A stretch of 64,000 nt of DNA from Treponemataceae bacterium (GCA_963667725.2 CAXXHO010000003.1:1824001-1888000), one strand, 5' to 3'. Shown: positions 22,012-37,593, counted from the first letter of the stretch. Notes: generated by a model from the letters alone, not told the origin. Numbers and translations: made by a program.

Positions 22012-22369
22012 TTTAGCCTCCGAAAAAACGAGTTGAAATATTTGACATGCCCATAATAAGCCCGCCAGATAAAATTCGCAATATACAAGCTCCTAAAACC
22101 GGTTTTCACTGGTGTTTCTTTTTGACACATTATATTGGGCGTTTTTAACACAGGCGTATCCAGGGGAAACATAAAAAACGGGAATCCCGAAACCCTGTTT
22201 CCGCCAATATCGCGGACGACCGAAAGCCTGAACTTTTCGACCTCCCTTAGGTCAGCCATCAAGACAGCAGGCTTTCCACGGGAATCGATGAATAACCTAA
22301 ATCTATTCAATATATACAATTAAAGTTTTTAAAATTTTCTGATAATTTTTTGTGATGTTTTTATTATTT

Positions 22370-22385
22370 TGGCACGATTTGTGCA
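22370..22385 (+). promoter_or_regulatory. Sigma-54 (-24/-12) promoter of hsp20
   Basis: TGGCACGATTTGTGCA = GG-N10-GC with a perfect TGGCACG; very AT-rich tract upstream. Confidence 0.7.
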
Positions 22386-22489
22386 TAATAATAGATGGGC
22401 GCCAAAAAGGGCCCCGCCAGGATGAGGCGGCTTGTAGAGCCGAAGCCCATCCGGCGAATTCCGGAAATTCCGGATTTTTGGAGGTTTTT

Positions 22490-22909
22490 ATGAATAACGT
22501 AACGCTTTATGGAAGCAATCCCTTCGATCTCATCGACCAGATGTTCAGCGGCGACGAATTCCTCTATCCTCAGTTCCGAACCCCGGCCATCGATGTCCGC
22601 GACGAAGAGAACCGCTATATAATCGAGGCTGAGCTTCCCGGCTATTCCGAGAAGGACATCAAACTCGAACTCAAGGACGGCACGCTTTCCCTCTCCACCG
22701 CGAAAAGCGATGCGGAAGGAGAAAAGAACGAAAAGGGCCGCTGGCTGCATAGGGAGCGCAGGGAATTCCGCTTCTCCCGCTCTTTCTCCCTTCCCGAAGA
22801 TGTGGATGCGGAGAAAATCGAGGCGAAATATAGGGATGGCCTCCTGACGATCTCTCTCGAGAAAAAGCCGGAGTCTTCTCCCCGCCTCGTTCCGGTAAAA
22901 GCGGCGTAA
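22490..22909 (+). CDS. Hsp20/alpha-crystallin small heat-shock protein
   Basis: PAIDVRDE, AELPG, FSRSFSLP, AKYRDGLLTI; RBS GGAGG before ATG 22490. Confidence 0.93.
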   Translation: MNNVTLYGSNPFDLIDQMFSGDEFLYPQFRTPAIDVRDEENRYIIEAELPGYSEKDIKLELKDGTLSLSTAKSDAEGEKNEKGRWLHRERREFRFSRSFSLPEDVDAEKIEAKYRDGLLTISLEKKPESSPRLVPVKAA

Positions 22910-22930
22910 GGCTTCCAGTCCGAATCGATC

Positions 22931-22973
22931 GGGGCTGCCCGCGAGACAATCGCGGGCGGCCCCATTTTTTTTT
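22931..22973 (+). terminator. Intrinsic terminator after hsp20
   Basis: GGGGCTGCCCGCGA-gacaa-TCGCGGGCGGCCCC followed by A and T9. Confidence 0.88.
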
Positions 22974-22987
22974 GAATTTGGTAACTC

Positions 22988-23029
22988 GTAACATATGTTA
23001 CAGATCATCGATGCGCGCCGCCATATACT
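22988..23029 (+). promoter_or_regulatory. Crp/Fnr-family (HcpR2/NtcA-like) operator plus -10 box
   Basis: Perfect palindrome GTAACATATGTTAC (22988-23001); TATACT at 23024-23029. Confidence 0.6.
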
Positions 23030-23080
23030 CAGCATGAAAAACGGCAGGAATTGGCCGGCAGACCACAAGGCGAGGGAAAA

Positions 23081-23935
23081 ATGGCGAAACGCACGATAAT
23101 CGAAATAGATCAGGATCTCTGCAACGGCTGCGGCTCCTGCGAAACAGGATGCCCCGAAGGAGCCCTGAAAGTCATAGACGGAAAGGCCAGGCTCGTCGGC
23201 GAAAGCCTCTGCGACGGGCTGGGCGCATGCATCGGCCGCTGTCCCGTGGACGCGATTCATGTCATCGAAAGAGAGGCCGACGCCTACGACGAGGTCGCCG
23301 TGCTCAAGGAAATACTCTCTCAGGGTCAGAGCGTCGTGCGGGCGCATTTCGCCCATCTCGATCACCACGGCCAGGACCTTTATCTGGAAAGGGCTGTCGC
23401 CTATCTCTCAGCCCAGAACATCGCCATTCCCCAAGGATACGAACGCTTCGGGCAGAAAAAAACCGCGCCGGCCTTCGTAAAATCCTGCGGCGTCTTTTCG
23501 GCGCTCAAGGAAAAAACGGCCTCGGCCGCGGAATCCATCCCATCGAAGCCTTCCGGCGTCTCGGCGCTCAAGAATTGGCCGATCCAGCTCCATCTGGTGA
23601 ATCCCCGGGCTCCCCATTTCACCGACGCCGATATCGTCATCGCCGCCGACTGCACGGCCTTCGCGCTGGGCTCCTTCCATGCCGACATCATCGAGGGAAA
23701 ATCCCTCGTCATCGCCTGCCCGAAGCTGGATTCGGGGAAGGATATCTACCTTTCCAAGTTGGCCGCCATATTGCGGCAAGCCCGAAGCGCTTCGGTCGTC
23801 ATCATGGAAGTGCCCTGCTGCTCTGGTCTCGTAAAGCTGGTTCAGGAAGCTCGGTCCATGGCAGGAGCGACGTTGCCGATCGAGATTCTCATCATCGGGA
23901 TAGATGGCGGATTCGTCGCCAGGAAAACAGTTTGA
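23081..23935 (+). CDS. 4Fe-4S dicluster ferredoxin-domain protein with Cys-rich C-terminal domain (FrdX-like)
   Basis: CNGCGSCETGCP, CDGLGACIGRCP, NWPIQLHLV, AADC, CPKLD, MEVPCC. Confidence 0.85.
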   Translation: MAKRTIIEIDQDLCNGCGSCETGCPEGALKVIDGKARLVGESLCDGLGACIGRCPVDAIHVIEREADAYDEVAVLKEILSQGQSVVRAHFAHLDHHGQDLYLERAVAYLSAQNIAIPQGYERFGQKKTAPAFVKSCGVFSALKEKTASAAESIPSKPSGVSALKNWPIQLHLVNPRAPHFTDADIVIAADCTAFALGSFHADIIEGKSLVIACPKLDSGKDIYLSKLAAILRQARSASVVIMEVPCCSGLVKLVQEARSMAGATLPIEILIIGIDGGFVARKTV

Positions 23936-23994
23936 TTCTTGTAAGGTGCGGGATGTATAATCAAGCACTATAATTTACTTTTATGGAGGGGATT

Positions 23995-24225
23995 ATGGCG
24001 GACAAATCATCAAAAAATCCCGGCAATGTCGCGGGAAAATGGTATGTGGATTCGACATGCATAGGCTGTGCCCTGTGCAACGGCACGGCGCCCGACGTTT
24101 TCGCCATGACCGACGACGGATCGCTGGCCTTCGTCGCCAAGCAGCCAGGCCCGGGCGGCGAGACGGAGCTGGCGGTACAGGCGCTCAGCGACTGCCCCGT
24201 GGGAGCTATCGGCAACGACGCTTAA
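23995..24225 (+). CDS. Small ferredoxin (single cluster)
   Basis: YVDSTCIGCALC...APDVF...CPVGAI; RBS GGAGG. Confidence 0.9.
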   Translation: MADKSSKNPGNVAGKWYVDSTCIGCALCNGTAPDVFAMTDDGSLAFVAKQPGPGGETELAVQALSDCPVGAIGNDA

Positions 24226-24250
24226 GCCCGGCGACCGCCGCGGCTCCTTG

Positions 24251-24281
24251 GGGCGGGCGGGATCGCGATCCTGCCCGCCCC
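24251..24281. terminator. GC-rich hairpin between convergent genes
   Basis: GGGCGGGCGGGATCGCGATCCTGCCCGCCC inverted repeat; no clear U-tract. Confidence 0.5.
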
Positions 24282-24284
24282 GCC

Positions 24285-25400
24285 TCACATCAAATTCTCG
24301 GGATTGAGCCTCTCGAGTTCCGGCAGCACAAACCGGCCGTCTTTCCTCGCGAGCCTGCCGTCCAGCCAGATTTCCCCGCCTCCCGACGCCTCGTCCTGTT
24401 TGAGCACGAGGTCCCAGTGCAGGCTCGACCGGTTGCCGTTGAAACAGTCGTCGTAGGAATTCCCCGGCGTAATGTGCACCGAGCCGGCTATCTTCTCGTC
24501 GAACAAGGTGTCCAGCAGTGGCTGCGTGATGTAGGGATTCACGCCGAAGGCGAACTCGCCCAGATATCGCGCGCCCTCATCTATGTCGAGCATCGCGTTG
24601 ACGCGCTTCGTGTCGTTGGCCCGCGCGTCCACGATCTTCCCGTTCTTGAATTCGAACCTCACCTGCTCGAACTTGAATCCATCCTTTTCGCTCGGCGTAT
24701 TGTAGCTTAAGACCCCATTCGCCGAATCCCTCACGGGAGCCGTATACACTTCCCCGTCGGGGATGTTCATCGTCCCGTCGCACTTGATGGCGGGCAGGCC
24801 CTTGATCGAAAAAGCGAGATCGGTGCCCGGGCCCAGTACCCGAACCTTGTCCGTGCGTTCGAGAAGTTTCACCAGGGGATCCATGCCTTTCGACATTTTG
24901 GCGTAATCCATGGTGCAGACATCGAAGAAATAATCCTCGAAAGCCGCTTCGCTCATGGCCGCGTTCTGAGCCATCGCCGGCGACGGATAGCGGAGCACCA
25001 CCCATCTCGTGTGCGGGACTCTCTGCTCGATATGCACTTTTTTCCAGATATGCTTATTATACAGATCCATCTTTTCCGCCGGCAGATCCTTCCAGGCGAA
25101 AGCGTTGCGCAGGCTCGTGAATCCAATAAACGCGTCCATTTTCTTCATCCGCTCGAGCTCGAACTCGGCCTGGAGGACAAACTGCTCCTCAGGACCGTTC
25201 AAATACAGTTCCCTCTCCACGGCCTTGTCGCGGAGCGCCACGAAAGCCAGCCCTCCCGCCGCGTGAACCGCGCCCACGAGCGCCTTGACGAATTCCGGTT
25301 CCGCGTTCGTGTCCTGTATAAGTACTTTTTCGCCTTTTTTCACCATAACCGAATAATTGACCAGGATGTCGGCCAACCTCCGTATCCTCGGGTCCACCAT
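24285..25400 (-). CDS. Aminopeptidase, M29 family (AmpS/AmpT-like)
   Basis: NIPDGEVYTAP, GEFAFG, LFDEKI.GSVH, SSLHWD. Confidence 0.9.
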   Translation of the reverse strand: MVDPRIRRLADILVNYSVMVKKGEKVLIQDTNAEPEFVKALVGAVHAAGGLAFVALRDKAVERELYLNGPEEQFVLQAEFELERMKKMDAFIGFTSLRNAFAWKDLPAEKMDLYNKHIWKKVHIEQRVPHTRWVVLRYPSPAMAQNAAMSEAAFEDYFFDVCTMDYAKMSKGMDPLVKLLERTDKVRVLGPGTDLAFSIKGLPAIKCDGTMNIPDGEVYTAPVRDSANGVLSYNTPSEKDGFKFEQVRFEFKNGKIVDARANDTKRVNAMLDIDEGARYLGEFAFGVNPYITQPLLDTLFDEKIAGSVHITPGNSYDDCFNGNRSSLHWDLVLKQDEASGGGEIWLDGRLARKDGRFVLPELERLNPENLM

Positions 25401-25867: not shown

Positions 25868-28800
25868 CTAAGGCCTGGCCGAATTCTCGGCAGGCCGCTC
25901 CACGGCAGCTTCGGTCAGCCGCTCCACGGCAGCCTCGGCCGCCCAGGCATCCTTCACGATATAATAGCTTTTCTTCAGTTTTTCGCGATAGGGAGGAGCC
26001 TCTTCCCAGCCCTTCCAGAAATAAGGATATGACGGATTGATTTCTATTCCGCCCGTCGTTTTCCCCAGCTTTTTGTCCCATACGATCGCGTCGACGAGGA
26101 AGCCGTCGGTCGCTACTGTATCCAGGGCGTCTCTTTCGGGATTGAAATAGCCCGTCCTCGAATCCTGGAGAACCTGGCGCGAAGAAGGATCGGTCACGTT
26201 GATATAGGTCCAGGGCAGGCGCAAAGAGATAGTCGATCCCTGGATGTTCCAGAGATTGCCCGCTTCGTCGAAGGGCCCCTTGCGCAGGGCGGAAGCGTCG
26301 AAACGCTTCTCGGCGATGTTCCTGCCGTCTTTCGTCCGCGCCGATCCATTCACGAGCATGCTGATCCGCTGGAATTGGCCGTCGGAGAGGCGAACCGTGG
26401 CGAAGCGGGACATGGCGGTATTGTAGGTCGGGATGACGAGGAGATCGGCTTTGTCGGCCGAAGACAGGCGAAAGACGAATTCCAGTCCTGAACTCGTCTT
26501 CATGTTTCCGACGGGCCAAAGCATCTGCCCCAGCTCTCGGCCGAGCGTATCGAGTCCGACCAGGATTTCCTCCGCGGCGAAATCGGGGGCGCGCTTAAGC
26601 TTTATCGTAATATTCAGATACGACGCGTCGACCGACAGTTCCATCGAATCGACGATGCCATTGCCCTTATATGTCACATCGGGCCGTTCCGGAGTCAGGA
26701 CTTCGTTCGCCATAAGGCCGTAGTTCTGTTCAGGGTCTACGGCGTTGTGCCAGAGGACATGCCGGTCGTAGGGAATCATGAGCGTCTCGGTGGTCCAGGT
26801 TTTCTTCACCCACTCGTCCATCCACTCGAAGATGACGCCGCCGGCATAGCCCTCTTTCCGGATCGCGTCCATCATCCTGAGAATGCCTTCCCCGGCCGCG
26901 GTTTCGTCTATGCCGCCATGATGCAGGCCGTCGGGGGCAAAATGCGCGATGCCCGAACCGTTGGCCAGACCGAACTCGGCCACGAGGGCGGGATACCGTC
27001 GATGGCTCTCCATGAACTCCCTGAGATAGCCGCCATAGCGGAGCGGGCCTTCTTCATCCTCGTAGGAGCCATAGGCGATCTCATTGTTCATGAAATCGGG
27101 ATAGTTCGGATAGATGTGGTAGGCGCCGAAGAGCCCGGCTGTCATGGCGGGCGTGATTTCAAAATGATCTATGGTCACGCTCGCCCTGTCGTTTCCCTTA
27201 TTCTTCTTGCCGGTCGCAGGGTCCCACTCCGAATCATGTTCCTTGGGATCCAGGGTCGGCCAGCTCACGAGGGAGACGGGATGCAGCTGGCCATATCGAG
27301 CCGCTTCGATCGACGCCACTTCGTCCAGGGATTCGGCCAGCCATACTTCCGTCGGCGTCGCCTCGAGCCCGGCCGAGACATACTTCCCGGCATAAGCTGC
27401 ATGTTTGTTGCGCTCGTCCGTCTCCATGACTTCCTCGCTCTCAAGCTCACGTCCCACGAGCCAACCCAGAAGCCATTTTGATACATCGGCGGTATAGATG
27501 CCCCAGGCCCTCCCCTTGCGCTCCGGCACATTGGCCCGGCCGTAAACGGCATCGATGCCGTAGTCGATCTCCTTGAGGAAGCTCTCCCTGTATTCGGGCG
27601 CGAGATAGTCGCCATTGGCGGGATTTTCTTCGGGCCAGATTTCCTGAAGCAGATAGAGCGTTCTATCGGGATGCTCGGTGTTGTGAATGGACAGCGCCTT
27701 ATAGAACTCGGGAGGCGGGAGCGTGTAAATCCTGATGGTGTTGGCATTCATGTCAGCGATGCCTTCGAGCCAGCGCCTGTAGGTGCTTACATCCTCAGGA
27801 AAGTTGGTGAAGTACATCCCCGGTTCCGCGAAACCCATGTTGACGCCGCGCACGAAAAGATCTTTCCAGATTCCGTCCTTGTCGCGCAGCTGAAAGCCTT
27901 TGCCGAAGGCCCTGACGTTGACCCTAAGTTCGCCATGTTCGCCGGACATCAAAGTCCTCGCTACCTTGGCCTTCTCCGCGTCGCGGAGTATCGAACGTAT
28001 GAGCGGCACATAGGCCTTCCAGAAGAAATAGGCGTTGCTGTCCACCGAATCGTCGATCAGCAGTTTTTTCAGCCAGGAGATCCCTTTCATTCCATAGGGA
28101 GTGGAAATAGCCTGGAGATCAGCGAAATCCCCCGCGAAATACCAGCCAGAATACTGCGGGTTTTTATAGAGGAGAATGGCCGGAAAGGTCGTAGGCAGCC
28201 CGAGACTATCCAGTTTGGCTTTGCCGCTCGCGGTTAGGTCGAGAGTATAGTCGGCGACGGTTTCCGATCCGCTGTCTGGAATTGTCCACTCGAACCAATA
28301 GCGGTAGGAAATGGGCTTTTTCGATTTCAGGGCTTCGGCCCAAGGATCTCTGAAGGAAAACTTCAGCCCATTCTTGCCTATATCCTCCATTTCCGTGAGC
28401 ACCTCGACATGGTCTTCATCCGAGATGAGAATGTATCCGCGGCCAAAAAAGTTCCATTGCTTTCCAGTCTGAGCCGCGTAATTGGATATCACCCAGGCCG
28501 GAACTTCTTTTCCCGCCGTGAGATCCTCGAAATACTTGCCGATCCAGCCATTCCACTGGATGCCCAGCAACCTTCCCAGCGTCAGCCTGTCCCGCAGGTT
28601 CGTCGGCGAAGCCGCCGAATTGAACTCGGCCATGAAGGTATTCCCGGCACCCAGGTTCTTCCTGATCGTCTGGATGTCCTCCGTGGTCAAGGCGCCGTAT
28701 AGCTTGGAAGAGATTTCGCCCGCCAGTTTCTTCTGCATATAATCGTCTTTGTAGACGCCATAGGTATCGGTGATATAGACGATATCGGGCCGCTGCCCGT

Positions 28801-29122
28801 CGGCCGGCAGAGAAAGGCTTCTCCATTCGTTTTCGCCATAAGGGTAGAAACCGAAGTAATCGGATTTTTCATTATAGAGCTGTCTGGACCCCAGTTTCGC
28901 GATTTTCTCGTTTTTCAGCACCCAGAAAAAGCCGGCGTGTTCGCGGTAATCGGGATAGGGAACGGTCTTGTCCACAGCCCATATGTTGAGTTCGCGCGAT
29001 GGGGCTACCTGCCACAAGATGAAAGGAGCCAGAACGAGGAGGACCGTTCCGGCCGTGATCGCGACGAGAAGGATGCTCAGGATCATCATCGCGGAACGTT
29101 GCCCGATACCAGAAGTCTTCAT
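25868..29122 (-). CDS. Membrane-anchored two-domain protein: uncharacterised N-terminal domain + clan GH-A-like glycoside hydrolase
   Basis: N-terminal TM; DKTVP..YREH/DTYGVY domain; then VRGVNMG, NANTIRIYT, GRE, YHIYPNYP, AEFG, FEWMDEW TIM-barrel motifs. Confidence 0.72.
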   Translation of the reverse strand: MKTSGIGQRSAMMILSILLVAITAGTVLLVLAPFILWQVAPSRELNIWAVDKTVPYPDYREHAGFFWVLKNEKIAKLGSRQLYNEKSDYFGFYPYGENEWRSLSLPADGQRPDIVYITDTYGVYKDDYMQKKLAGEISSKLYGALTTEDIQTIRKNLGAGNTFMAEFNSAASPTNLRDRLTLGRLLGIQWNGWIGKYFEDLTAGKEVPAWVISNYAAQTGKQWNFFGRGYILISDEDHVEVLTEMEDIGKNGLKFSFRDPWAEALKSKKPISYRYWFEWTIPDSGSETVADYTLDLTASGKAKLDSLGLPTTFPAILLYKNPQYSGWYFAGDFADLQAISTPYGMKGISWLKKLLIDDSVDSNAYFFWKAYVPLIRSILRDAEKAKVARTLMSGEHGELRVNVRAFGKGFQLRDKDGIWKDLFVRGVNMGFAEPGMYFTNFPEDVSTYRRWLEGIADMNANTIRIYTLPPPEFYKALSIHNTEHPDRTLYLLQEIWPEENPANGDYLAPEYRESFLKEIDYGIDAVYGRANVPERKGRAWGIYTADVSKWLLGWLVGRELESEEVMETDERNKHAAYAGKYVSAGLEATPTEVWLAESLDEVASIEAARYGQLHPVSLVSWPTLDPKEHDSEWDPATGKKNKGNDRASVTIDHFEITPAMTAGLFGAYHIYPNYPDFMNNEIAYGSYEDEEGPLRYGGYLREFMESHRRYPALVAEFGLANGSGIAHFAPDGLHHGGIDETAAGEGILRMMDAIRKEGYAGGVIFEWMDEWVKKTWTTETLMIPYDRHVLWHNAVDPEQNYGLMANEVLTPERPDVTYKGNGIVDSMELSVDASYLNITIKLKRAPDFAAEEILVGLDTLGRELGQMLWPVGNMKTSSGLEFVFRLSSADKADLLVIPTYNTAMSRFATVRLSDGQFQRISMLVNGSARTKDGRNIAEKRFDASALRKGPFDEAGNLWNIQGSTISLRLPWTYINVTDPSSRQVLQDSRTGYFNPERDALDTVATDGFLVDAIVWDKKLGKTTGGIEINPSYPYFWKGWEEAPPYREKLKKSYYIVKDAWAAEAAVERLTEAAVERPAENSARP

Positions 29123-32100
29123 TTCTTGTCCTTGTCAGGCTGATTTCCGGCTGGCCCCGAAGCCACGCCGGAAGAGGAGAAGCCCTTTCTTTCCATCTTG
29201 CCCCAGCCTTTCGGCTTTTTCATGGCGCTCAGGAATCCGAACACGCGCCACATAGAAAACAGCTGCCGGGGGCCGAAATTCTCGATGAGGGCGATGGCGA
29301 GCATCTTCAGAGTGTCCTTATACGAGAAATAATAGATCTGCCGCTCCGCGATCAGCACCGAAGCCATGGAAATGAGGATACCCATGAAGACGGTCGAGAG
29401 AAAAAGAAGAATGGCGAGCTTGGCGCTTATCAAACCGAGAAGAGCCGCAAGAAAGACCATGAAATACCCTTGAATCTCAAAAAGCGGACCTATCATCTCG
29501 AAAATGAGAAAATACGACATTCCGAGCATACCCATTTTCCCGTAGGCGGGATTGAAAATCAGTTTTCTGTGGAAATACAGGATATCGATGAGCCCTCTAT
29601 GCCACCTGTCCCTCTGCCGCTTCAGGATATCTATGCTTTCCGGAACTTCCGTCCAGCAGTTGGCGTTATAGGCGTAGCTTATCCGGTATTTCTGCTTTTT
29701 TTCTCGCATATGCCTGGCCAGCCTCACGACGAGCTCCATGTCTTCTCCCACGGTATCCTTCCCGTATCTTTCGTTGCTGGTGAGATAGCCGCCTACGCTG
29801 ATCACCCGCTCCTTGCGGAAAAGACCGAAAGCACCGGATATGATGAGAAGCGTATTGATCTGCGCCCAGCCGAGCCTGCCGCACATGAAGGCTCTCAGAT
29901 ACTCGATGGTCTGCAGTTTGGCCAGGCTGTTGGCCGGAAGGGCTATGTGCGTGAGCTTTCCGCGGTCCACGCCGCATCCGTTTATGGGGAAAACGTTGCC
30001 GCCCATCGCGGGCGTCTCCACCCCGTAATCGAGGGTCATGGCGGCGACCTTTAGCAATGAGTCGGGCTCGAGAAGCGAATCGGCGTCTATGCCGCAGAAG
30101 TATTCCTTGGAAGCGATGTTGATGCCGGCGTTGAGCGAATCGGCTTTCCCGCCGTTATCCTTGTCCACGACGACGAGACGCGGGTAAAGAGGATTCATGT
30201 AGATTCCCCTCACCGAGGCCGTCTTGAGCCTTTGTGTGTAATAGTGATCTGTCCGTTTGAGAGCGTAGTAGGAGATGAGGCTGTTCAGCGTGCCGTCACG
30301 CGATCCGTCATTGACGACGACCAGTTCGTAGTCGGGATACTTGAGATTGAGCAGGGAGCTCGTACTCTCTATGATCGTCTTCTCTTCGTTGAATGCCGGG
30401 GCGATGATGGAGACCGAAGGAAGTATGCGCGGCTTGAAAAGGAAGGACATCGTCTTTAGATTCCAGAGCCTGGTAGATGATTTCACCTTCACGGTCGAGA
30501 GCAGGAGAAGAACGATGTATATCGCGTTGATCGCCATCGAATACCAGGCAAAGTTGTAGTTCACGTCCACGACGTAGGTTTTCAGCTGCACGAGCGGCGG
30601 GATGGAACCTATCTGGTTGCCATGGCTTAAAAAGTAAATCGCGGGAAAAAGCAGAAGCGATCCGATCAATATCATATAGAGCCGACGCACCATTTTCCAG
30701 TCCCGTTTTTCTTCGCGCTTCTTGACGGGAACCGTGATTCTCCGGAAACCGCATTTCTCGATGAGGCGATCGGGAAGATAGAGTCCGCATTCCGTCCTCA
30801 GCCTTTCGCTTCCATCGGCTTCTTCGCGTATGATGGCGATTACGGCTTCTTCCAGAGCCTCATCCTTGTTCAGTTTCAGAAATTCGATGATCTCCGAAAC
30901 CTTCCCGAGCCTGATGACCTCGCTTATGAGCCGGGCCGATTTTTCCTTCTCCTTCCCCGATAGTTTGGTTATGAAATATTCGATCTTTCCAGCCAGTATT
31001 TCAGCCAGGCTCTGGGCAATGTTCTTGTCGGTCGTTTTCTCGAAAGCATCCACGACTGACGGAATGAGCCGCGGATGCGCCATCAGAATCCGTGAGAGGC
31101 CGATTTTTGCCGGTATCGCCGTCTGCTCATCTCCGAGATAGCGCAGCAGCGTATCGATGTCATCCTGGCCGTTTCCGCCGCCGAGGGAGCGCACCGCGAT
31201 GGCTCGGATATCCTTGTCTTCATGTTCGAGGAACTCCGTGGAATTCAATACATCGCCATAGAATTTTTCGATGCACTCGGCCGCTTTCAGCATGAGCCTA
31301 TGATGGTTCTCCACGGGGTGTTGGCTCGTGACAAGGAGATTGAAATGCCTGCAGTGAAAATCCGGCGAGACGCTGCCTTTGTATTTGCATTGCCTTCGCT
31401 GGTCGTCGGCGATGGTCTGGCCGTGGCGGCAGAAGGCGCAGCATTTTTCGGGACAGCCCTCTACCAATGCCGAGAGCCGGGCTATCTCGGCCTGTCCCCC
31501 CGAGAGCATCGCTACGAGATACTCCTTGAGGTCTTCGGAAACATAGGTGATGGATATGTCCAGAAAGAGCTCGAGTATCTCGCTGCCTTCGCGCCAGAAA
31601 TACCCGCGCAGATAATCTGAAGCTTCCGGACCGAAGGAAGCGATGAGGAGATTCACTTTATCGCGATACCAGCGATGGGCGCCTATCAGGCTCTCGACGA
31701 GTACGTTCAGGGACCGGGGATCCCCGATTTCAGCCAACGCGTTCGCGATGAAAAGCTTGACGGGAAATTCCTTTTCGGCAAGAAGAGCTTTTTCAAGTAT
31801 CGCGCGGGCATCGTCGCTCCTAATCAAGGACAGTCCCAGGGAGGCTTCCATCCGCTCGTAGCGGCTTTGATACCTGATTCTTCTCTTGAGGATGGATTCC
31901 AGCCTTTCCGACCTGGCCAGGCTGAGAATCCTGAGATGCTCGTGTTCGGGAAGCTGTATGGACTGTTTCAGGCGAAGGTAATTATCGAAGAGCCTGCTCA
32001 CTCTTTTCTTGTCCCACTTGGTGCCTGTCTCGAAAAGATGGTTGAGTTGGGCGATTTCCCTTTGTCGCCGCTCATCCGAGAGCGCAAGCCTGGATTTGTT

Positions 32101-32184
32101 GATCAACGTCGTTAAAATGACGAAGATATCGAACCAAAGGAAAAAAATTACGGCGAGCAGTATGAATTCTATCTCGAGATTCAT
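29119..32184 (-). CDS. HEAT-repeat + processive family-2 glycosyltransferase fusion (PgaC/IcaA-like synthase)
   Basis: HEAT-like repeats (IANALAEIGDPRSL, IRAIAVRSLG); GT2 motifs PAFNEE, NDGSRD, NGGKADSLN, DADS, GED, QRDRW; C-terminal TMs and WGKMERKG. Confidence 0.88.
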   Translation of the reverse strand: MNLEIEFILLAVIFFLWFDIFVILTTLINKSRLALSDERRQREIAQLNHLFETGTKWDKKRVSRLFDNYLRLKQSIQLPEHEHLRILSLARSERLESILKRRIRYQSRYERMEASLGLSLIRSDDARAILEKALLAEKEFPVKLFIANALAEIGDPRSLNVLVESLIGAHRWYRDKVNLLIASFGPEASDYLRGYFWREGSEILELFLDISITYVSEDLKEYLVAMLSGGQAEIARLSALVEGCPEKCCAFCRHGQTIADDQRRQCKYKGSVSPDFHCRHFNLLVTSQHPVENHHRLMLKAAECIEKFYGDVLNSTEFLEHEDKDIRAIAVRSLGGGNGQDDIDTLLRYLGDEQTAIPAKIGLSRILMAHPRLIPSVVDAFEKTTDKNIAQSLAEILAGKIEYFITKLSGKEKEKSARLISEVIRLGKVSEIIEFLKLNKDEALEEAVIAIIREEADGSERLRTECGLYLPDRLIEKCGFRRITVPVKKREEKRDWKMVRRLYMILIGSLLLFPAIYFLSHGNQIGSIPPLVQLKTYVVDVNYNFAWYSMAINAIYIVLLLLSTVKVKSSTRLWNLKTMSFLFKPRILPSVSIIAPAFNEEKTIIESTSSLLNLKYPDYELVVVNDGSRDGTLNSLISYYALKRTDHYYTQRLKTASVRGIYMNPLYPRLVVVDKDNGGKADSLNAGINIASKEYFCGIDADSLLEPDSLLKVAAMTLDYGVETPAMGGNVFPINGCGVDRGKLTHIALPANSLAKLQTIEYLRAFMCGRLGWAQINTLLIISGAFGLFRKERVISVGGYLTSNERYGKDTVGEDMELVVRLARHMREKKQKYRISYAYNANCWTEVPESIDILKRQRDRWHRGLIDILYFHRKLIFNPAYGKMGMLGMSYFLIFEMIGPLFEIQGYFMVFLAALLGLISAKLAILLFLSTVFMGILISMASVLIAERQIYYFSYKDTLKMLAIALIENFGPRQLFSMWRVFGFLSAMKKPKGWGKMERKGFSSSGVASGPAGNQPDKDKK

Positions 32185-34214
32185 CTCCCCGCCCCTGCCG
32201 ATGTCATGTTCCGGACAATCCCTAAAAGTTCAGGGAGAAGATAAGGTTTTTTCAGATAATGATCGATGCCCAGTTTATACGCTCTGGAAACGGATTTTTC
32301 ATCCTTCCGGTGGGATAAAAGCACGAAAGGAATGTCCTTGGTTCCCGATTTCCTCGAAAGGGCTTCCTTGAGCATGAGGCCGTCGATCTTGGGAACCATG
32401 AGTTCCGAGATGATGAGATCGTAGCCTTCCTCGCTTATTTTTTTCAGGGCCTCGGCGCCGTCTTCGGCTATGGCGACGGAATAATCGGCATTCTCCAGAA
32501 AGGTCCTTATGACGCCCGCGTTCACGGTATCGTCGTCGACGATCAGTATATTCGCCTTGGATTCGACCTCCGTACCGACCTCGGACGACGAACATATGGT
32601 ATCGCCGCCGCGCCTCTTCGCCAAACGCAATCGTTTCAAGCCGATCTCGGAGAGCGAGCCCCCAGCCTCGGCGGGATCCGTGATCGACGACTTGATTTCG
32701 GCTATCGCGACGAGGCCGATGGATATGGTGATCGGCTCTATGAAAGATCTGGAGATCTCGACACTCTTCCTAATATGCTCGCAAAGATCGTTCGCTTCAT
32801 GGAAAACGATGCGCGGCATCCAAATCGCGAAGGTCGCTCCGTGCAGACGGAAAACAGGCTGGCTCGCCGACTTTAGATCGAGCACGATCCTGGTAACACC
32901 CTTGAGAACGGCCTCCACTTCGCGCGGCCCATATTGATACTCGATCGAGGAAATGGCCTCATCGATGCCGATAACGGCCAGGACATCGTCTTCCATCCCT
33001 TCCGCGTCCAGCGAAAGCGAGGCTTGCTCGTCGATGAAATTGCGGAAGAAGGCTTCGTTGTAGAGTCCGGTGGTGGTGTCCCTCAGCTGGGATTCATTCG
33101 CCTGACCGTAAGCCTGTATGAGCTGTTCGTTCAGCTGCCTGAGTCTGGCGACTTCCTGCCCGAGCTCCTCGAAATTCCGCTCCGCTTCCTTAAGGATGGA
33201 AGCGTATATCGCGGGACGCTTTATGCCGAATTCCTCGCAGAGCTTGGCCACGAAAGGTTCCAGCAAGGTTAACGCGGAATGGCCCTGCACCAGATAAATC
33301 GTGTCGGCGAGCCTGTTCCACAGGTCCAAGCCAGCCGGCGCGGCGTTGACGATAGCGCCTGTCTCAGTATCCAATTCAAGCCCAAGCTTGAGGGCAATAG
33401 TGTCAGCTAACTTCTGTCCGTAAACGGCGGAAAAACGGGCTAAAAGATGCCTGACAGGCTTGAGGGACCCGCTGAAATCGCCCAGGTTTTTTTTGGGTGA
33501 ACCCAGCAAGGTGCCGCATTCCAGGGTTCGAAGCTCGTCGATATATGTCTTGATGTCGCGGTCGATTATCGATCCATGCTGAGGCAGTATGGCCACGAGT
33601 TCGAGACAGGAGAAGATTTCCATCACCGGTCCCAATATTTCGTGGGAGGGCATGTAGTGTTCATGGAAGGTTTTCATCCCTTCCATATAGTCTTTCCCCG
33701 CATGGAGGGACCACTCGGGCGTAAAGGCGCCAAAAAGGTCGCTGGATAGAAGGAACTTGGCCTGTCTGTCGTAGGTTGCGATGGCGCCGGGAAAGTGAAG
33801 ATAGGCCGTCGGTATGAAGCGCAGCGCTCTCCCCGAGGCAAGGGTGAGAAGATACCCATGCTCGTCCACCAGGTAAGCAGGCGACTTGATCCCGTAGAAA
33901 CGCACCAGCGTCCAGGTTCTCCAGTGCGTGACGATGGTGAAGCGCATCCCGAGCGCCTCAAGATGGGGTACAGCAGAAGCGAGATCGGGGTCCTGGTGGG
34001 ACAGCACGATGTATTTGACTTTTTCGAGCGGAATTATGGAGGCGACATTGGCTGCCACCTCATTCACGTCAAGGACCGAGCCAGGATCGAACAGGACGGC
34101 TTCTTCTCCCTCGACAAGCAGATAGGGATTGCACTGCAGGCTGTCGGTTGCGGCCTGGGCGCCGACCCAGTAATAGCCTGATCCAAGGGATTCGCTCACG
34201 CTTCCTGACGCCAT
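32181..34214 (-). CDS. ODP-type MBL-fold di-iron sensor + degenerate GGDEF + atypical receiver domain
   Basis: QCNPYL, DPGS, HQDPD, HWR, HFPG, SSDLFG, FHEHYMPS, PQHG; DTTTGLYN...RLHGATF...AKRRGGD; ILIVDDD...DLIISE...KP. RBS AGGAG before ATG 34214. Confidence 0.85.
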   Translation of the reverse strand: MASGSVSESLGSGYYWVGAQAATDSLQCNPYLLVEGEEAVLFDPGSVLDVNEVAANVASIIPLEKVKYIVLSHQDPDLASAVPHLEALGMRFTIVTHWRTWTLVRFYGIKSPAYLVDEHGYLLTLASGRALRFIPTAYLHFPGAIATYDRQAKFLLSSDLFGAFTPEWSLHAGKDYMEGMKTFHEHYMPSHEILGPVMEIFSCLELVAILPQHGSIIDRDIKTYIDELRTLECGTLLGSPKKNLGDFSGSLKPVRHLLARFSAVYGQKLADTIALKLGLELDTETGAIVNAAPAGLDLWNRLADTIYLVQGHSALTLLEPFVAKLCEEFGIKRPAIYASILKEAERNFEELGQEVARLRQLNEQLIQAYGQANESQLRDTTTGLYNEAFFRNFIDEQASLSLDAEGMEDDVLAVIGIDEAISSIEYQYGPREVEAVLKGVTRIVLDLKSASQPVFRLHGATFAIWMPRIVFHEANDLCEHIRKSVEISRSFIEPITISIGLVAIAEIKSSITDPAEAGGSLSEIGLKRLRLAKRRGGDTICSSSEVGTEVESKANILIVDDDTVNAGVIRTFLENADYSVAIAEDGAEALKKISEEGYDLIISELMVPKIDGLMLKEALSRKSGTKDIPFVLLSHRKDEKSVSRAYKLGIDHYLKKPYLLPELLGIVRNMTSAGAGR

Positions 34215-34362
34215 CGCGTACTCCTGCAATTCTGATGAATATAAGCTGGCTCAATTCACCGCATAAGACCGCTGTCTTTGATTATACAGCGCTCCAGTAT
34301 CATAATAATGCATAATGATACGCTTAGTAAGACTTTTTGCCCTATGCCCCTGCATATTTCAT

Positions 34363-34420: not shown

Positions 34421-36124
34421 ATGTCTACACTAATTGCGTTGGTAGCGCTTGCTATCTACGTGGTGTTCTACTTTACTTACGGTAAGAACATCCGTGACAA
34501 GCTGCTCAAAAGCGACAAAGCTGCCGAAGCCCCGTCCAAAAGGCTGTCGGATGGCGTCGACTATGTTCCGACGTCCAAGTATGTCCTGTTTGGCCACCAC
34601 TTCGCGTCCATCGCCGGCGCAGGACCCATCACCGGTCCCGCAATGGCCGTCGCATGGGGCTGGCTGCCTGGACTTCTCTGGATCTGGTTCGGCAACATCT
34701 TTCTCGGCGCTATCCATGACTATCTATCCCTCGCCGCGTCGGTCCGCTATGACGGACGTTCGATGCAGTTCGTCGCACAGGACCTGATCGGCAAGAAAGC
34801 AGGAAAAACTTTCAGCTGGTTCATCCTCTTCCTCTGCGTCCTGGTCGTCGCCGCATTCGGCGACATCGTCGCCGGACAATTCGCCGCCGACGGTCGCGTC
34901 TTCTTCTCTTTCGTCTTCTTCTGTGTTGCGGCTGTCATAGCCGGCTATTTTATGTACAAGTCCAAGCTGGGCCTCGGAAAGGGCACGATCATCGGCATCG
35001 CCCTCATCATCGTGGCATTCTGGCTCGGCGACAAGTTCGCCGGCGTGAAGTGGAGCAAGGATGTCTATTTCATCATCATCGGGGTATACATCATTCTGGC
35101 CTCGACGCTCCCCGTCAACCTGCTTCTGCAGCCGCGAGACTATCTGTCGTCATTCTTCCTTTATTTCGGTCTTCTCGCGGGCGGCATCGCCGCGATCATC
35201 AGCGCCAAGGCCCTGGATGCCATTCCCGTATTCACCAGCTTCAGCGCCAAGCTGATCGGCCCCGCCGGCAATCTCCAGCCTTCGCCCTTCTGGCCGACCG
35301 TACCTCTCATTATCGCCTGCGGCGCCCTGTCGGGCTTCCATTCCCTCGTCGCCGCCGGAACCTCTTCCAAGCAGCTTAAGGAAGAAAAAGAGGCTCTCTT
35401 TGTCGGTTACGGCGCCATGCTTGTGGAAGGTTTCCTTTCCACCCTCGTCGTCATCTCCATCGCGGGATTCGGCGCCATCGCCCTCGGCGACAAACTCATG
35501 GCAACGCCGGCTCTCGGCCGATTTGTCCAGTCTTTCGCTACGATGGTCAGCACCCAGATTCCCTTCCTTCCCAAGAGCTTCATGTCGCTTTTCGCCGCGG
35601 TATGGGTATCGACCTTCGCTCTCACCACACTGGACACGACAAACCGCCTTGGCCGCTACATCATCCAGGAAATGGTTCTTCCCCTCAAGGAAACGAAGCC
35701 TGGCGTGTTTAAGACCCTGGGCAACAAGTGGGTAGCTTCCATCATCATCGCCGTCGTTGGCATCTTCCTCGCCAAAAGCGGTGGCTACACGGTCATCTGG
35801 CCGGCCTTCTCCGGAGCCAACCAGCTTCTGGCCTCCATTGTCATGCTTACGCTCGCCATGTGGGTCAAGAAGAAGCTCGATCCCAAGTATATCAACATGG
35901 TATTAGTGCCGGCGTATCTGCTGTGGTTCACCGTCACCGTCGCCCTCATCTGGTACGAAGTGGTCATCGTCCCCGTCTTCTTCGTCGATATGGCGAAGTC
36001 GATGAATGTGATCACCGGCGTCGTGGTTGGAGCGATCAATCTCTTCATGCTCATCCTCAGCTTCATCATGCTGTTCGCTTTCAGGAAGAGCTGGAAGTCC
36101 GCTGAATTCGCTAAAGACTATTGA
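34421..36124 (+). CDS. cstA: Carbon starvation protein A family transporter
   Basis: DGVDYVPT, FGHHFASIAGAGPITGP, LLQPRDY, IACGALSGFHS, TTLDT, WPAFSGANQLLA. Confidence 0.93.
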   Translation: MSTLIALVALAIYVVFYFTYGKNIRDKLLKSDKAAEAPSKRLSDGVDYVPTSKYVLFGHHFASIAGAGPITGPAMAVAWGWLPGLLWIWFGNIFLGAIHDYLSLAASVRYDGRSMQFVAQDLIGKKAGKTFSWFILFLCVLVVAAFGDIVAGQFAADGRVFFSFVFFCVAAVIAGYFMYKSKLGLGKGTIIGIALIIVAFWLGDKFAGVKWSKDVYFIIIGVYIILASTLPVNLLLQPRDYLSSFFLYFGLLAGGIAAIISAKALDAIPVFTSFSAKLIGPAGNLQPSPFWPTVPLIIACGALSGFHSLVAAGTSSKQLKEEKEALFVGYGAMLVEGFLSTLVVISIAGFGAIALGDKLMATPALGRFVQSFATMVSTQIPFLPKSFMSLFAAVWVSTFALTTLDTTNRLGRYIIQEMVLPLKETKPGVFKTLGNKWVASIIIAVVGIFLAKSGGYTVIWPAFSGANQLLASIVMLTLAMWVKKKLDPKYINMVLVPAYLLWFTVTVALIWYEVVIVPVFFVDMAKSMNVITGVVVGAINLFMLILSFIMLFAFRKSWKSAEFAKDY

Positions 36125-36180
36125 CGATAGCATTCAGGCATGCAGGCCTGCGCGCCTGATTGATGCCTGATCGAATCAGG

Positions 36181-36218
36181 AAGAGCCCAGGGGTATTCAA
36201 ACTCCCGGGCTCTTTTTT
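36181..36218 (+). terminator. Intrinsic terminator after cstA
   Basis: AAGAGCCCAGG...CCCGGGCTCTT followed by a T-run. Confidence 0.72.
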
Positions 36219-36354
36219 CTGTTATGACAATCGACGCGACAGCCACCGGTATGACAGCTGTCGGCGCTTGCCCGCATGAGTCTCCCAGTAGTATAGTCAC
36301 ACCTGAGCCTGCAGCCTGAAGTAAAGTGCTCAGCCTCGGTAAAAGGAAATCCAG

Positions 36355-36636
36355 ATGCCTTCAAAGCTCGAACATTGGATACGGTCGGCGATAAAAGTGA
36401 TCACCCAAGTCAACAGGGAAAAGGCGACTGGCATTCTCGAATTTGAGACTCATGAATTGGAGAATATTTTCGCCCTTCTTGTGCTTGGAGGATTCGCCGG
36501 ACTCCCTTCCCCGCCTTCTCCGATAGCGGTCGAGCTTCTCCCCTATATGGAGAAAGAATTGCTTATGCTTCTCTCCCGCACCGATCTAGCCCAGGATCCT
36601 ATAGGCGTGCTTGCCAGCATGCTTGAAGTGGGCTGA
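36355..36636 (+). CDS. Small hypothetical protein associated with CstA/ArsA loci
   Basis: 93 aa; ELENIFALLVLG.F.GLPSPP...ELLPY; RBS AAGGA. Confidence 0.7.
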   Translation: MPSKLEHWIRSAIKVITQVNREKATGILEFETHELENIFALLVLGGFAGLPSPPSPIAVELLPYMEKELLMLLSRTDLAQDPIGVLASMLEVG

Positions 36637-36645
36637 GGATATACG

Positions 36646-37593
36646 ATGAACAAGACCGTTTTTTTCCTGGGCAAGGGCGGGGTTGGCAAGACAACGCTGT
36701 CGAGCGCCTTCGCCTTGAGTCTCGCCAGAATGGGCAAAAAAGTGCTCATCGCCTCGCTTGACCCAGCCCATAATCTGGGCGATGCCCTCGATATTCAGCT
36801 TACAGGTCAGGCGAAAAACGCTGAGCCCAACCTGGACGCCCTCGAAGTTGACCTTGCCTACTGGGTGGACAAGTATCTTGATGACAGCCGGAGACAGCTG
36901 AAATCGAATTATTCCTACAATGTGACCCTCAACCTCGATTCATTCTTCAATATCCTGAAGTATGCTCCCGGCACCGAGGAATACGCCGTACTGTGGGCGA
37001 TAGAGGATATAAATACCAGGCTGGGACCTCTCTACGATGTCGTCGTATTCGACACACCGCCAACCGCCCTCTCTCTTCGCTTTCTCTCCCTTCCGACAAT
37101 TTCAGGTCTTTGGGTAAAAGAATTGAGTAAACTGCGGGAAACCATCCTGAGTAAACGGCAGACTATCACAAGGCTCAATCCCGAATCGCCGGTGGCCGAG
37201 AGTTGCGTTGACAAGGACGATGATAAGGTCTACGGCCAGCTCAAGGGTATCGGAGCAAGGCTTCGCGGTCTCGAGCATCTTTTCGCCTGCGAAAGTTTCC
37301 TGTCGGTCATCGTGAACCCGGACCAGCTCTCGATAGATGAGGCCTTGCGGATACAGGACGAGCTGACGAAACTGGGCATTCCGCTATCCGCGGTCTGTAT
37401 CAACAAACAGGGCGTATCGGATATGGTCTGGGAACAGAATCCTTCGCTAGCCCGATATCCACAATTCACTTACGATTTTTCGCGCGGTGGCATCTCGACG
37501 AGGGAGGATCTCCTCAGCATAGACACCGGCCCCCTCGCTGACCTGTTTTTGAAAAACACACAGAATCCCATCATTGAGAGGAAGAAAAAATAA
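36646..37593 (+). CDS. Single-domain ArsA/Get3-family ATPase
   Basis: GKGGVGKTT deviant Walker A, DPAHNL, PGTEE, DTPPT. Confidence 0.9.
   Translation: MNKTVFFLGKGGVGKTTLSSAFALSLARMGKKVLIASLDPAHNLGDALDIQLTGQAKNAEPNLDALEVDLAYWVDKYLDDSRRQLKSNYSYNVTLNLDSFFNILKYAPGTEEYAVLWAIEDINTRLGPLYDVVVFDTPPTALSLRFLSLPTISGLWVKELSKLRETILSKRQTITRLNPESPVAESCVDKDDDKVYGQLKGIGARLRGLEHLFACESFLSVIVNPDQLSIDEALRIQDELTKLGIPLSAVCINKQGVSDMVWEQNPSLARYPQFTYDFSRGGISTREDLLSIDTGPLADLFLKNTQNPIIERKKK

Follow-up and report, generated by a model that had tools for sequence, protein, structure and literature searches.

The window analysed here, a stretch of 64,000 nucleotides from a Treponemataceae bacterium (GCA_963667725.2, CAXXHO010000003.1:1824001-1888000), carries on its minus strand a three-gene operon, real, conserved and apparently undescribed in print, which consists of an ODP-bearing regulator (gene 1), a glycosyltransferase of family GT2 fused to HEAT repeats (gene 2) and a membrane-anchored protein with a clan GH-A barrel (gene 3). 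According to the best explanation, to which an even chance is given, the operon encodes a metal-modulated HEAT-GT2 glycan synthase that receives its iron inputs by contact and whose product is trimmed or remodelled by gene 3. The processive GT2 enzyme with its fused HEAT arm would likely make and translocate a beta-linked glycan, gene 1 would likely dock onto the HEAT arm via its glutamate-bearing receiver, and two sites would tune the synthase through their iron/oxygen state: the di-iron ODP domain and the insert in the HEAT arm, a predicted HiPIP-like [4Fe-4S] mini-domain. For the membrane-anchored GH-A protein a periplasmic role is predicted, in which the glycan would be trimmed, released or remodelled. 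The ancestral module may have been a phosphorylation-driven combination of receiver, HEAT arm and GT2; in this branch the receiver would have been fused to ODP and lost its aspartate, ODP would have taken over the kinase input, and the metal inputs would be modulators kept or dropped by lineages and no obligate gate. As a guess, a protective layer might be induced upon exposure to oxygen.

As proposed in the initial annotation, the three genes are minus-strand open reading frames coupled by ATGA overlaps at positions 32181-32184 and 29119-29122, where the plus strand reads TCAT. The coordinates of the genes and their domains are collected in Table 1. Papers are cited by PMC number and drawn on in excerpts throughout.

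The ODP-containing regulator

Pfam, the alignment with PDB entries and the motifs agree in describing gene 1, as it had been read before, as an ODP sensor followed by a coiled coil, a degenerate GGDEF domain and an atypical receiver (REC) domain. Pfam matches were obtained for ODP (1.2e-56, residues 26-214), GGDEF (4e-9) and REC (7e-23), and the ODP profile PF19583 was matched over its full length (positions 1-194 of 194) with 192 bits, compared with a curated cut-off of 27.2. The closest PDB relatives are the two solved ODPs, 6qrq (1e-24) and 6qnm (6e-24), to whose motif HQDPD, H140, D159 and QHG of gene 1 align, all six motif residues being present. Following the motif of metallo-beta-lactamases and flavodiiron proteins, H73, D75, D77, H140, D159 and H213 are presumed to be the iron ligands.

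Among 132 homologues of gene 1 the GGDEF motif is intact in none, and the position of the phospho-acceptor in the receiver is occupied by glutamate in 128; gene 1 is thus neither an active diguanylate cyclase nor a phosphorylatable response regulator, and the earlier proposal that neither synthesis of cyclic di-GMP (c-di-GMP) nor a phosphorelay is involved holds. Across the GGDEF-REC part (residues 345-674) of these sequences no column with an RxxD I-site exceeds a frequency of 15%. Six residues of the degenerate GGDEF domain, D379, D418, R456, R482, R528 and R530, are conserved in at least 90% of them. The host genome contains 21 GGDEF matches. Gene 1 is its sole strong ODP match (1e-57; next 3e-17) and no flagellin was found in this 97% complete genome, so that the described role of ODP in chemotaxis is unlikely here.

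A helical domain of about 100 residues, which is present in 58/128 homologues and deleted in many orthologues, separates ODP from the coiled coil. Sequence searches gave no family for it, and its TAL-repeat and coiled-coil matches were rejected as repeat artefacts.

The HEAT-fused synthase and its four-cysteine insert

Gene 2 had been described as a transmembrane segment, HEAT repeats with a cysteine-rich insert and a processive GT2 domain with all motifs intact, which was confirmed by Pfam (HEAT_2 1e-12, GT2 4e-20) and by the positions of the motifs (NDGS 625, DADS 700, GED 813, QRDRW 857). The D, DxD, GED and QRxRW motifs are invariant over 48 homologues, and together with the flanking transmembrane helices the D, DxD, ED and QxxRW motifs characterize gene 2 as a processive membrane GT2. 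Since two hydrophobic segments (498-516, 544-565) lie between the HEAT arm and the cytosolic GT2 domain, the arm is probably cytosolic as well. The best NCBIfam models for the GT2 domain are PgaC/IcaA (1e-32), TIGR03111 and NodC, cellulose synthase being weak, and comparison with PDB sequences gave generic GT-A matches only. No PilZ or other c-di-GMP family was found in gene 2 by Pfam. Prediction of a complex between the HEAT arm (residues 31-496) and the receiver (550-677) with 34-row alignments gave an ipSAE of 0.00 twice, which weighs neither for nor against docking.

The cysteines of the insert (C249, C252, C266 and C278, in the order CxxC...C...C) are invariant in 24/24 aligned inserts. 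A profile search of 1.84 billion representatives yielded 48 matches, mostly free-standing proteins of 56-99 residues with the same four cysteines, and after enlargement of the alignment by 37 of the search matches the cysteines remained invariant in 61/61 rows. No sequence match to the insert was obtained in Pfam, NCBIfam or PDB. A HiPIP-like pattern had been suspected from the motif before the insert was folded. In a comparison of the resulting model (53 residues, pLDDT 71) with 48,161 chains, 11 matched at Z of at least 2, and all 10 matches listed are HiPIPs or HiPIP-like subunits of glycyl radical enzymes, with weak scores of Z 2.5-3.6 (below 4). The top match in Foldseek is HiPIP 3h31 (prob 0.97, TM-score 0.59, root-mean-square deviation (rmsd) 2.3, E 0.09), and the rows shown as far as rank 18 are all HiPIP or HiPIP-like. 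The modelled insert is therefore likely, though not proven, to have a HiPIP-like fold, low scores being expected from so small a model, and this suggests a second iron site, a predicted [4Fe-4S] cluster, inside the synthase. HiPIP-like subunits of glycyl radical enzymes bind [4Fe-4S], and according to the excerpts BSS-beta was proposed to control enzyme conformation (PMC13450708, PMC12590467).

The free-standing relatives of the insert (P0299-P0343; 56-99 residues, CxxC...C...C) form an unnamed family outside Pfam and NCBIfam. Being homologous to the insert, they are also predicted to be HiPIP-like. None was found in the host genome.

The membrane-anchored GH-A protein

Gene 3 gave no Pfam or NCBIfam family and no PDB sequence match, neither by protein nor by profile. 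The AlphaFold2 model, calculated from 83 sequences (pLDDT 90, pTM 0.88), contains a (beta/alpha)8 barrel of clan GH-A, which aligns with GH157 9fz9 over 317 residues (Z 30.0, rmsd 2.5). Other fold matches are GH2 (Z 27), GH5 and GH72 (Z 23) and the Pseudomonas glycoside hydrolase (GH) 4zn2 (Z 20). The best folds are GH157 and GH158, to which the structural identity is 12-16%. This fold match bears out the earlier description as a membrane-anchored unknown domain with a GH-A barrel and adds a third, beta-sandwich domain, which is likely inserted in the barrel because the last helix (1051-1071) aligns with the barrel. The N-terminal helix probably anchors the protein, facing the periplasm.

Among the homologues of gene 3, E559 is conserved in 82/83 and E716 in 83/83. 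E559 lies just past strand 551-556 and E716 within strand 712-717, from which the roles of acid/base and nucleophile, respectively, are predicted; in clan GH-A the catalytic glutamates follow strands 4 and 7. A Planococcus homologue lacks both glutamates. For the N-terminal domain of gene 3, two candidates were rejected: the GH42M-like domain of neighbouring deacetylases (profile comparison negative, probability 0.1) and DUF2194, a lead that scored 0.81 only.

Distribution of the operon

The family survey comprised 60 relatives, namely 36 genomes of the same family (Rectinemataceae) and 24 others, and the synthase is encoded in 24/36 and 2/24 of them, respectively. All 24 synthase-bearing genomes of the family have a gene-1 match spanning GGDEF-REC; gene 3 is present in 23 of these 24 and in 0/12 genomes without synthase. 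In 27 metagenome loci with gene 1, some of which are near-identical and one identical to the window, gene 2 directly follows gene 1 in 25, the other two being cut by a contig edge; as to gene 3, 18 of the 27 loci have it adjacent, one lacks it and in eight it is cut off. Receiver-only matches (L116-L167; 52/80 loci) were left out.

Phylum-wide, 26/401 genomes match the synthase, and 20 of the 26 loci, outside the host's own genome, were fetched. Eleven of these 20 loci encode a HEAT-fused synthase, which follows a gene-1-type regulator in eight and a shorter receiver protein in three; the remaining nine are unfused, with a stand-alone receiver upstream in eight. In total, a receiver stands beside the synthase in 19/20 phylum loci, and in 4/7 plasmid loci. 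The latter (seven fetched of 17 matches) have HEAT and GT2 as separate genes, accompanied by a receiver in four, a gene-3 homologue in three and YaiO in two. Stand-alone receivers keep the acceptor aspartate in 11/12, compared with the glutamate of ODP-fused receivers, so that ODP appears to replace a phosphorelay input. The family is spread over several phyla and archaea and, without known c-di-GMP sites, has a receiver/HEAT module instead; in this branch iron cofactors seem to have replaced the former input of the synthase.

All six ODP residues are complete in L068, L071 and L075 of other spirochaete families. L111, a contig with spore-germination genes, contains all three genes, the ODP site being intact, so that the three-gene unit probably also occurs in Bacillota. 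These four loci indicate that the intact site is old and kept by selection. Outside Rectinemataceae gene 3 is accessory: it is present in only 1/8 phylum loci of the gene-1 type, the others having TPR proteins, CE4 deacetylases or an orphan gene of 455 codons. One TPR protein beside the synthase (L070) scores as a YaiO pore.

Further genes were observed around the synthase. The orphan gene of about 455 codons, which has no Pfam or NCBIfam match and whose loci lack gene 3, is paired with a CE4 deacetylase in L069, L070, L072, L073, L083 and L085. The CE4 and GH16-like genes flanking the operon in L071 have homologues in the host genome, unlinked to the operon there (C3:1370312-1371112, C3:247511-248224). 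Directly upstream of gene 1 in two loci that have lost the ODP site lies a gene for a SpoIIE phosphatase-HATPase fusion (L041:5026-6630, L042:4919-6196), which is a further input swap.

Modulation by iron and alternative explanations

Several observations weigh against the explanation of a metal-modulated synthase. All six ODP residues are kept in 83/128 ODP-bearing homologues of gene 1; after removal of near-copies, six are complete in 35/67, five in 3/67 and four or fewer in 29/67. In a GGDEF-REC tree, built by a quick method and with long branches at its base, the label of the ODP site changes seven times, at least four changes being forced by strong branches. Fifty loci with both genes readable were compared, which were chosen by hand with near-duplicates dropped and are not independent of each other. 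The ODP site is intact in 23, has five of six residues in one and is lost in 22, and the domain is absent in four. The cysteine insert is present in 14 ODP-intact loci, the five-of-six locus and 12 ODP-lost loci, L040 with its frameshift-damaged insert being a 13th among the latter. By the motif tests 14/50 loci, L040 counted among them, have neither iron site; the synthase machine thus presumably works without either, and from these counts the two sites vary independently. Apart from this, the co-conservation of genes 1 and 2 is tight; gene 3 is missing beside the gene 1-gene 2 pair in 12/50 loci. The fold of the insert rests on Z below 4, a Foldseek E of 0.09 and a 53-residue model of pLDDT 71; the insert may be a zinc site instead of [4Fe-4S], and HiPIP-like gamma subunits are thought, in the excerpted text of PMC13450708, to be structural and to aid solubility. 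The strongly conserved surface of the degenerate GGDEF domain may accommodate a further ligand. Regarding the product, the GT2 domain scores 113.5 bits against TIGR03937 of PgaC/IcaA, far under the equivalog cut-off of 422.3, so that the sugar is not settled by the GT2 model, and no YaiO-type export pore was found in the host genome and the 60 relatives.

Because distant families share the intact ODP site, it dates back to the ancestor of this branch and is under selection, although it can be dispensed with. Since the di-iron site has disappeared from roughly half of the related operons, the synthase is likely tuned by oxygen or iron and not strictly gated, and the term gated in the initial annotation is not upheld in view of the repeated losses of the site and the absence of the domain from some loci. 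Strict gating, the synthase being off except in a single specific O2/Fe state of the di-iron centre, is very unlikely: the site is intact in the host genome and no other input is recognisable within the operon, but it was lost repeatedly while the GT2 and GH genes stayed intact. Doubtful, albeit less so, is the stronger proposal that two iron cofactors, the di-iron site of the partner ODP and a HiPIP-type cluster in the HEAT arm, act as direct switches of the synthase, without second messenger or phosphorylation; the cluster would re-reduce the di-iron site or act as a redundant redox sensor, and anaerobes would build a glycan layer as oxygen or iron changes. The window locus carries both iron sites. 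Natural variants with ODP only (L037, L071), the cysteines only (L048, L102) or neither (L041) provide, together with loci that have both, ready-made controls.

Gene 1 could also be a constitutive structural activator whose glutamate receiver mimics the phosphorylated state, ODP being mainly a dimerising scaffold, the insert a structural cluster and control being transcriptional or exerted by an unlinked factor. The retention of the ODP fold after ligand loss in many lineages (22/50 loci have the domain without the site), the solubility role of gamma subunits cited above and a DNA motif conserved upstream of gene 1 in 23/29 orthologous leaders are in line with it. It is nevertheless judged unlikely, as the complete set of six ODP residues is retained in distant families and on the probable Bacillota contig and the site-lost ODP domain diverges faster relative to GGDEF/REC (ratio 0.81 vs 1.05). 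Less probable again is a nucleotide receptor of the BcsE/PelD kind, in which c-di-GMP or another nucleotide at a non-canonical site of the degenerate GGDEF domain is the main switch and ODP an accessory. The logic of pseudo-REC and pseudo-GGDEF domains resembles that of BcsE and PelD, as far as described in excerpts of PMC8892547 and PMC8461298, the genome has its GGDEF proteins and the six Asp/Arg residues are highly conserved; the I-site column is missing, however, the unfused systems have a receiver only and no GGDEF, and gene 2 lacks any c-di-GMP family.

Separately from regulation, the product might be, instead of a surface HexNAc polymer, a beta-glucan of the periplasm, which gene 3 as a transglycosylase may cyclise or branch; this is considered possible, with the balance leaning against it. 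Cyclic-glucan synthases that combine GT2 with GH17 (NdvB) may offer an analogue. The best folds of gene 3 are beta-1,3-glucanases (GH157/GH158), GH72 transglycosylases also scoring high, no YaiO pore was found in the 61 genomes, and in L071 the operon has a GH16-like gene as its immediate neighbour. On the other hand, the best GT2 models are the GlcNAc transferases PgaC/IcaA and NodC, CE4 deacetylases stand beside the synthase in L046, L069, L070, L071, L083, L085 and L112, L070 has its TPR-YaiO pore, and the ranking of GH-A folds leaves the substrate unfixed.

Comparison with known systems

ODP of Treponema denticola (TDE2498; 6qnm/6qrq) shares its domain and motif residues with gene 1. Excerpts of the literature report ODPs fused to signal-transduction domains in general terms (PMC7319448), and the partner described is the chemoreceptor/CheA array, ODP serving as a chemotaxis sensor (PMC7666581). 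Gene 1 differs in that ODP is fused to degenerate GGDEF and REC domains in a glycan synthase operon, in a genome without detectable flagellin. If the proposed explanation is true, ODP gains a second job besides chemotaxis.

Characterised synthase-dependent polysaccharide systems are, in the excerpted text of PMC8892547 and PMC8461298, switched by c-di-GMP. The operon would work most like the BcsE- or PelD-regulated synthases treated there, yet fails the I-site test. E. coli BcsE (N-terminal domain, degenerate REC and degenerate GGDEF) and Pseudomonas PelD are likewise built of catalytically dead signalling domains and serve as subunits dedicated to a synthase-dependent polysaccharide machine, but they bind c-di-GMP by an RxxD I-site that gene 1 lacks, their domain order differs, and ODP and a HEAT-fused synthase are lacking in both. 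PgaABCD and IcaADBC provide the best NCBIfam GT2 model and have the same processive motifs; apart from the distance to the cut-off (113 vs 422 bits), the operon differs by its HEAT arm and GH-A partner and by having no PgaD/IcaD, PgaB or PgaA, and does not belong to the Pga/Ica systems.

Regarding the insert, HiPIP, BSS beta/gamma and HPAD gamma are four-cysteine mini-domains whose fold the insert is predicted to share. These act as free carriers in the periplasm or as small subunits of their own, whereas here the mini-domain is inserted in the cytosolic HEAT arm of a glycosyltransferase, which would make it the first iron-sulfur domain found inside a glycan synthase within the literature searched. 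Clan GH-A hydrolases (GH157, GH158, GH2, GH5, GH72 and GH39, PslG-like) share with gene 3 the barrel fold and, presumably, the two conserved glutamates; gene 3 differs from them by an identity of at most 18%, an extra N-terminal domain and the inserted beta-sandwich, and would define a new GH-A family.

Closest in arrangement are uncharacterised receiver/HEAT/GT2 clusters of Mesorhizobium, Erythrobacter, Emticicia, haloarchaea, Paenibacillus, Deinococcus and Planococcus, which encode a homologous GT2 (33-42% identity) next to a HEAT gene, accompanied by a receiver, a YaiO pore or a gene-3 homologue. Unlike in the operon, the genes are separate, the receiver has aspartate, and ODP and the cysteine insert are lacking. 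An uncharacterised cluster of hypothetical, HEAT and GT2 genes in NELoc-2 of C. perfringens, listed in Table 4 of PMC2879425, is of similar arrangement. On the Planococcus plasmid (L063), VTC-domain, DUF4956 and CotH genes precede the GH-like, HEAT and GT2 genes, in an order similar to that listed in the NELoc-2 table (PMC2879425).

No description of an ODP-, HEAT- or HiPIP-controlled glycan synthase was found in the open-access literature, covered mostly by title listing, with subscription journals outside the scope. If the explanation is right, the operon is a compact unit of three genes for studying directly how oxygen controls the glycans of envelopes or biofilms in anaerobes.

Upstream region and genomic context

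Table 1. Genes of the operon and their domains (positions in the window; res, residues)
Feature	Position	Strand	Remarks
Gene 1	32181..34214	minus	677 residues; cytosolic regulator: ODP, helical domain, coiled coil, degenerate GGDEF, Glu receiver
ODP di-iron domain	33507..34187	minus	res ~10-236; H73, D75, D77, H140, D159, H213 present; PF19583
Helical domain, then coiled coil	33090..33482	minus	res ~245-345 and ~345-375; helical part in no known family
Degenerate GGDEF	32571..33083	minus	RLHGA replaces GGDEF; no RxxD I-site; conserved D379, D418, R456, R482, R528, R530
Receiver domain	32205..32555	minus	Glu604 at phospho-acceptor position
Gene 2	29119..32184	minus	1021 residues; N-terminal transmembrane helix, HEAT arm, two transmembrane helices, processive GT2, C-terminal transmembrane helices
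HEAT-repeat arm	30715..32007	minus	res ~60-490; probably cytosolic
Four-cysteine insert	31315..31473	minus	C249, C252, C266, C278; predicted HiPIP-like [4Fe-4S] mini-domain
GT2 catalytic domain	29560..30432	minus	D, DxD, ED, QxxRW motifs invariant in alignment
Gene 3	25868..29122	minus	1084 residues; anchored in the membrane; alpha/beta domain of no assigned family, then a GH-A clan barrel into which a beta-sandwich is likely inserted
N-terminal domain of gene 3	27947..29005	minus	res 40-392; no family; unnamed proteins of ~370 residues in other phyla
GH-A (beta/alpha)8 barrel	26693..27928	minus	candidate acid/base E559, candidate nucleophile E716
Beta-sandwich domain of gene 3	26033..26689	minus	res ~812-1030

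The motif CCGA(T/A)(A/T/G) is located 22-43 nt ahead of the start in 23/29 leaders of gene-1 orthologues (L032-L114), compared with a mean of 1.6 and a maximum of 6 in shuffled leaders, and is likely a promoter element. The leaders of the window (34238-34266) and of L031 lack it and, by eye, have TTATGC-17-TATATT/TATAAC instead. A sigma-28 reading of the motif was not adopted, as no TAAA element was seen by eye and the genome has no flagellin. A scan for sigma-70 promoters gave no minus-strand site ahead of gene 1. A Fur box upstream of gene 1 was rejected: the best site matches the consensus at 12/19 positions, which is attained 3401 times across the genome, and is unconserved.

The GC content of the operon (53-58%) is similar to that of its surroundings. 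The nearest named relatives are metagenome-assembled genomes of Rectinemataceae/Treponemataceae, which makes the host a spirochaete, and its family is assumed to be anaerobic. By Pfam, the operon is flanked by an M29 peptidase gene downstream and a divergent cstA upstream; no PgaD/IcaD, deacetylase or porin gene was found in the operon and its flanks. Downstream (22352-25400), genes for Hsp20, a 4Fe-4S ferredoxin-like protein (23051-23935) and the M29 peptidase were observed, which are near the operon in several relatives too. On the upstream side (34421-38222), the divergent cstA is accompanied by genes for an ArsA-like ATPase and a membrane protein, with the same synteny in many relatives.

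One sequencing run of guessed kind yielded short contigs over parts of all three genes, which are not usable for expression or co-transcription; in the same run the cstA contig is much deeper than that of the operon. The gene-3 barrel occurs a second time, as a fusion with TPR repeats, in L053:11652-14294, L054:9321-12014, L058, L060 and L062, and in two genomes this further copy lies just downstream of the operon, past the M29 peptidase gene.

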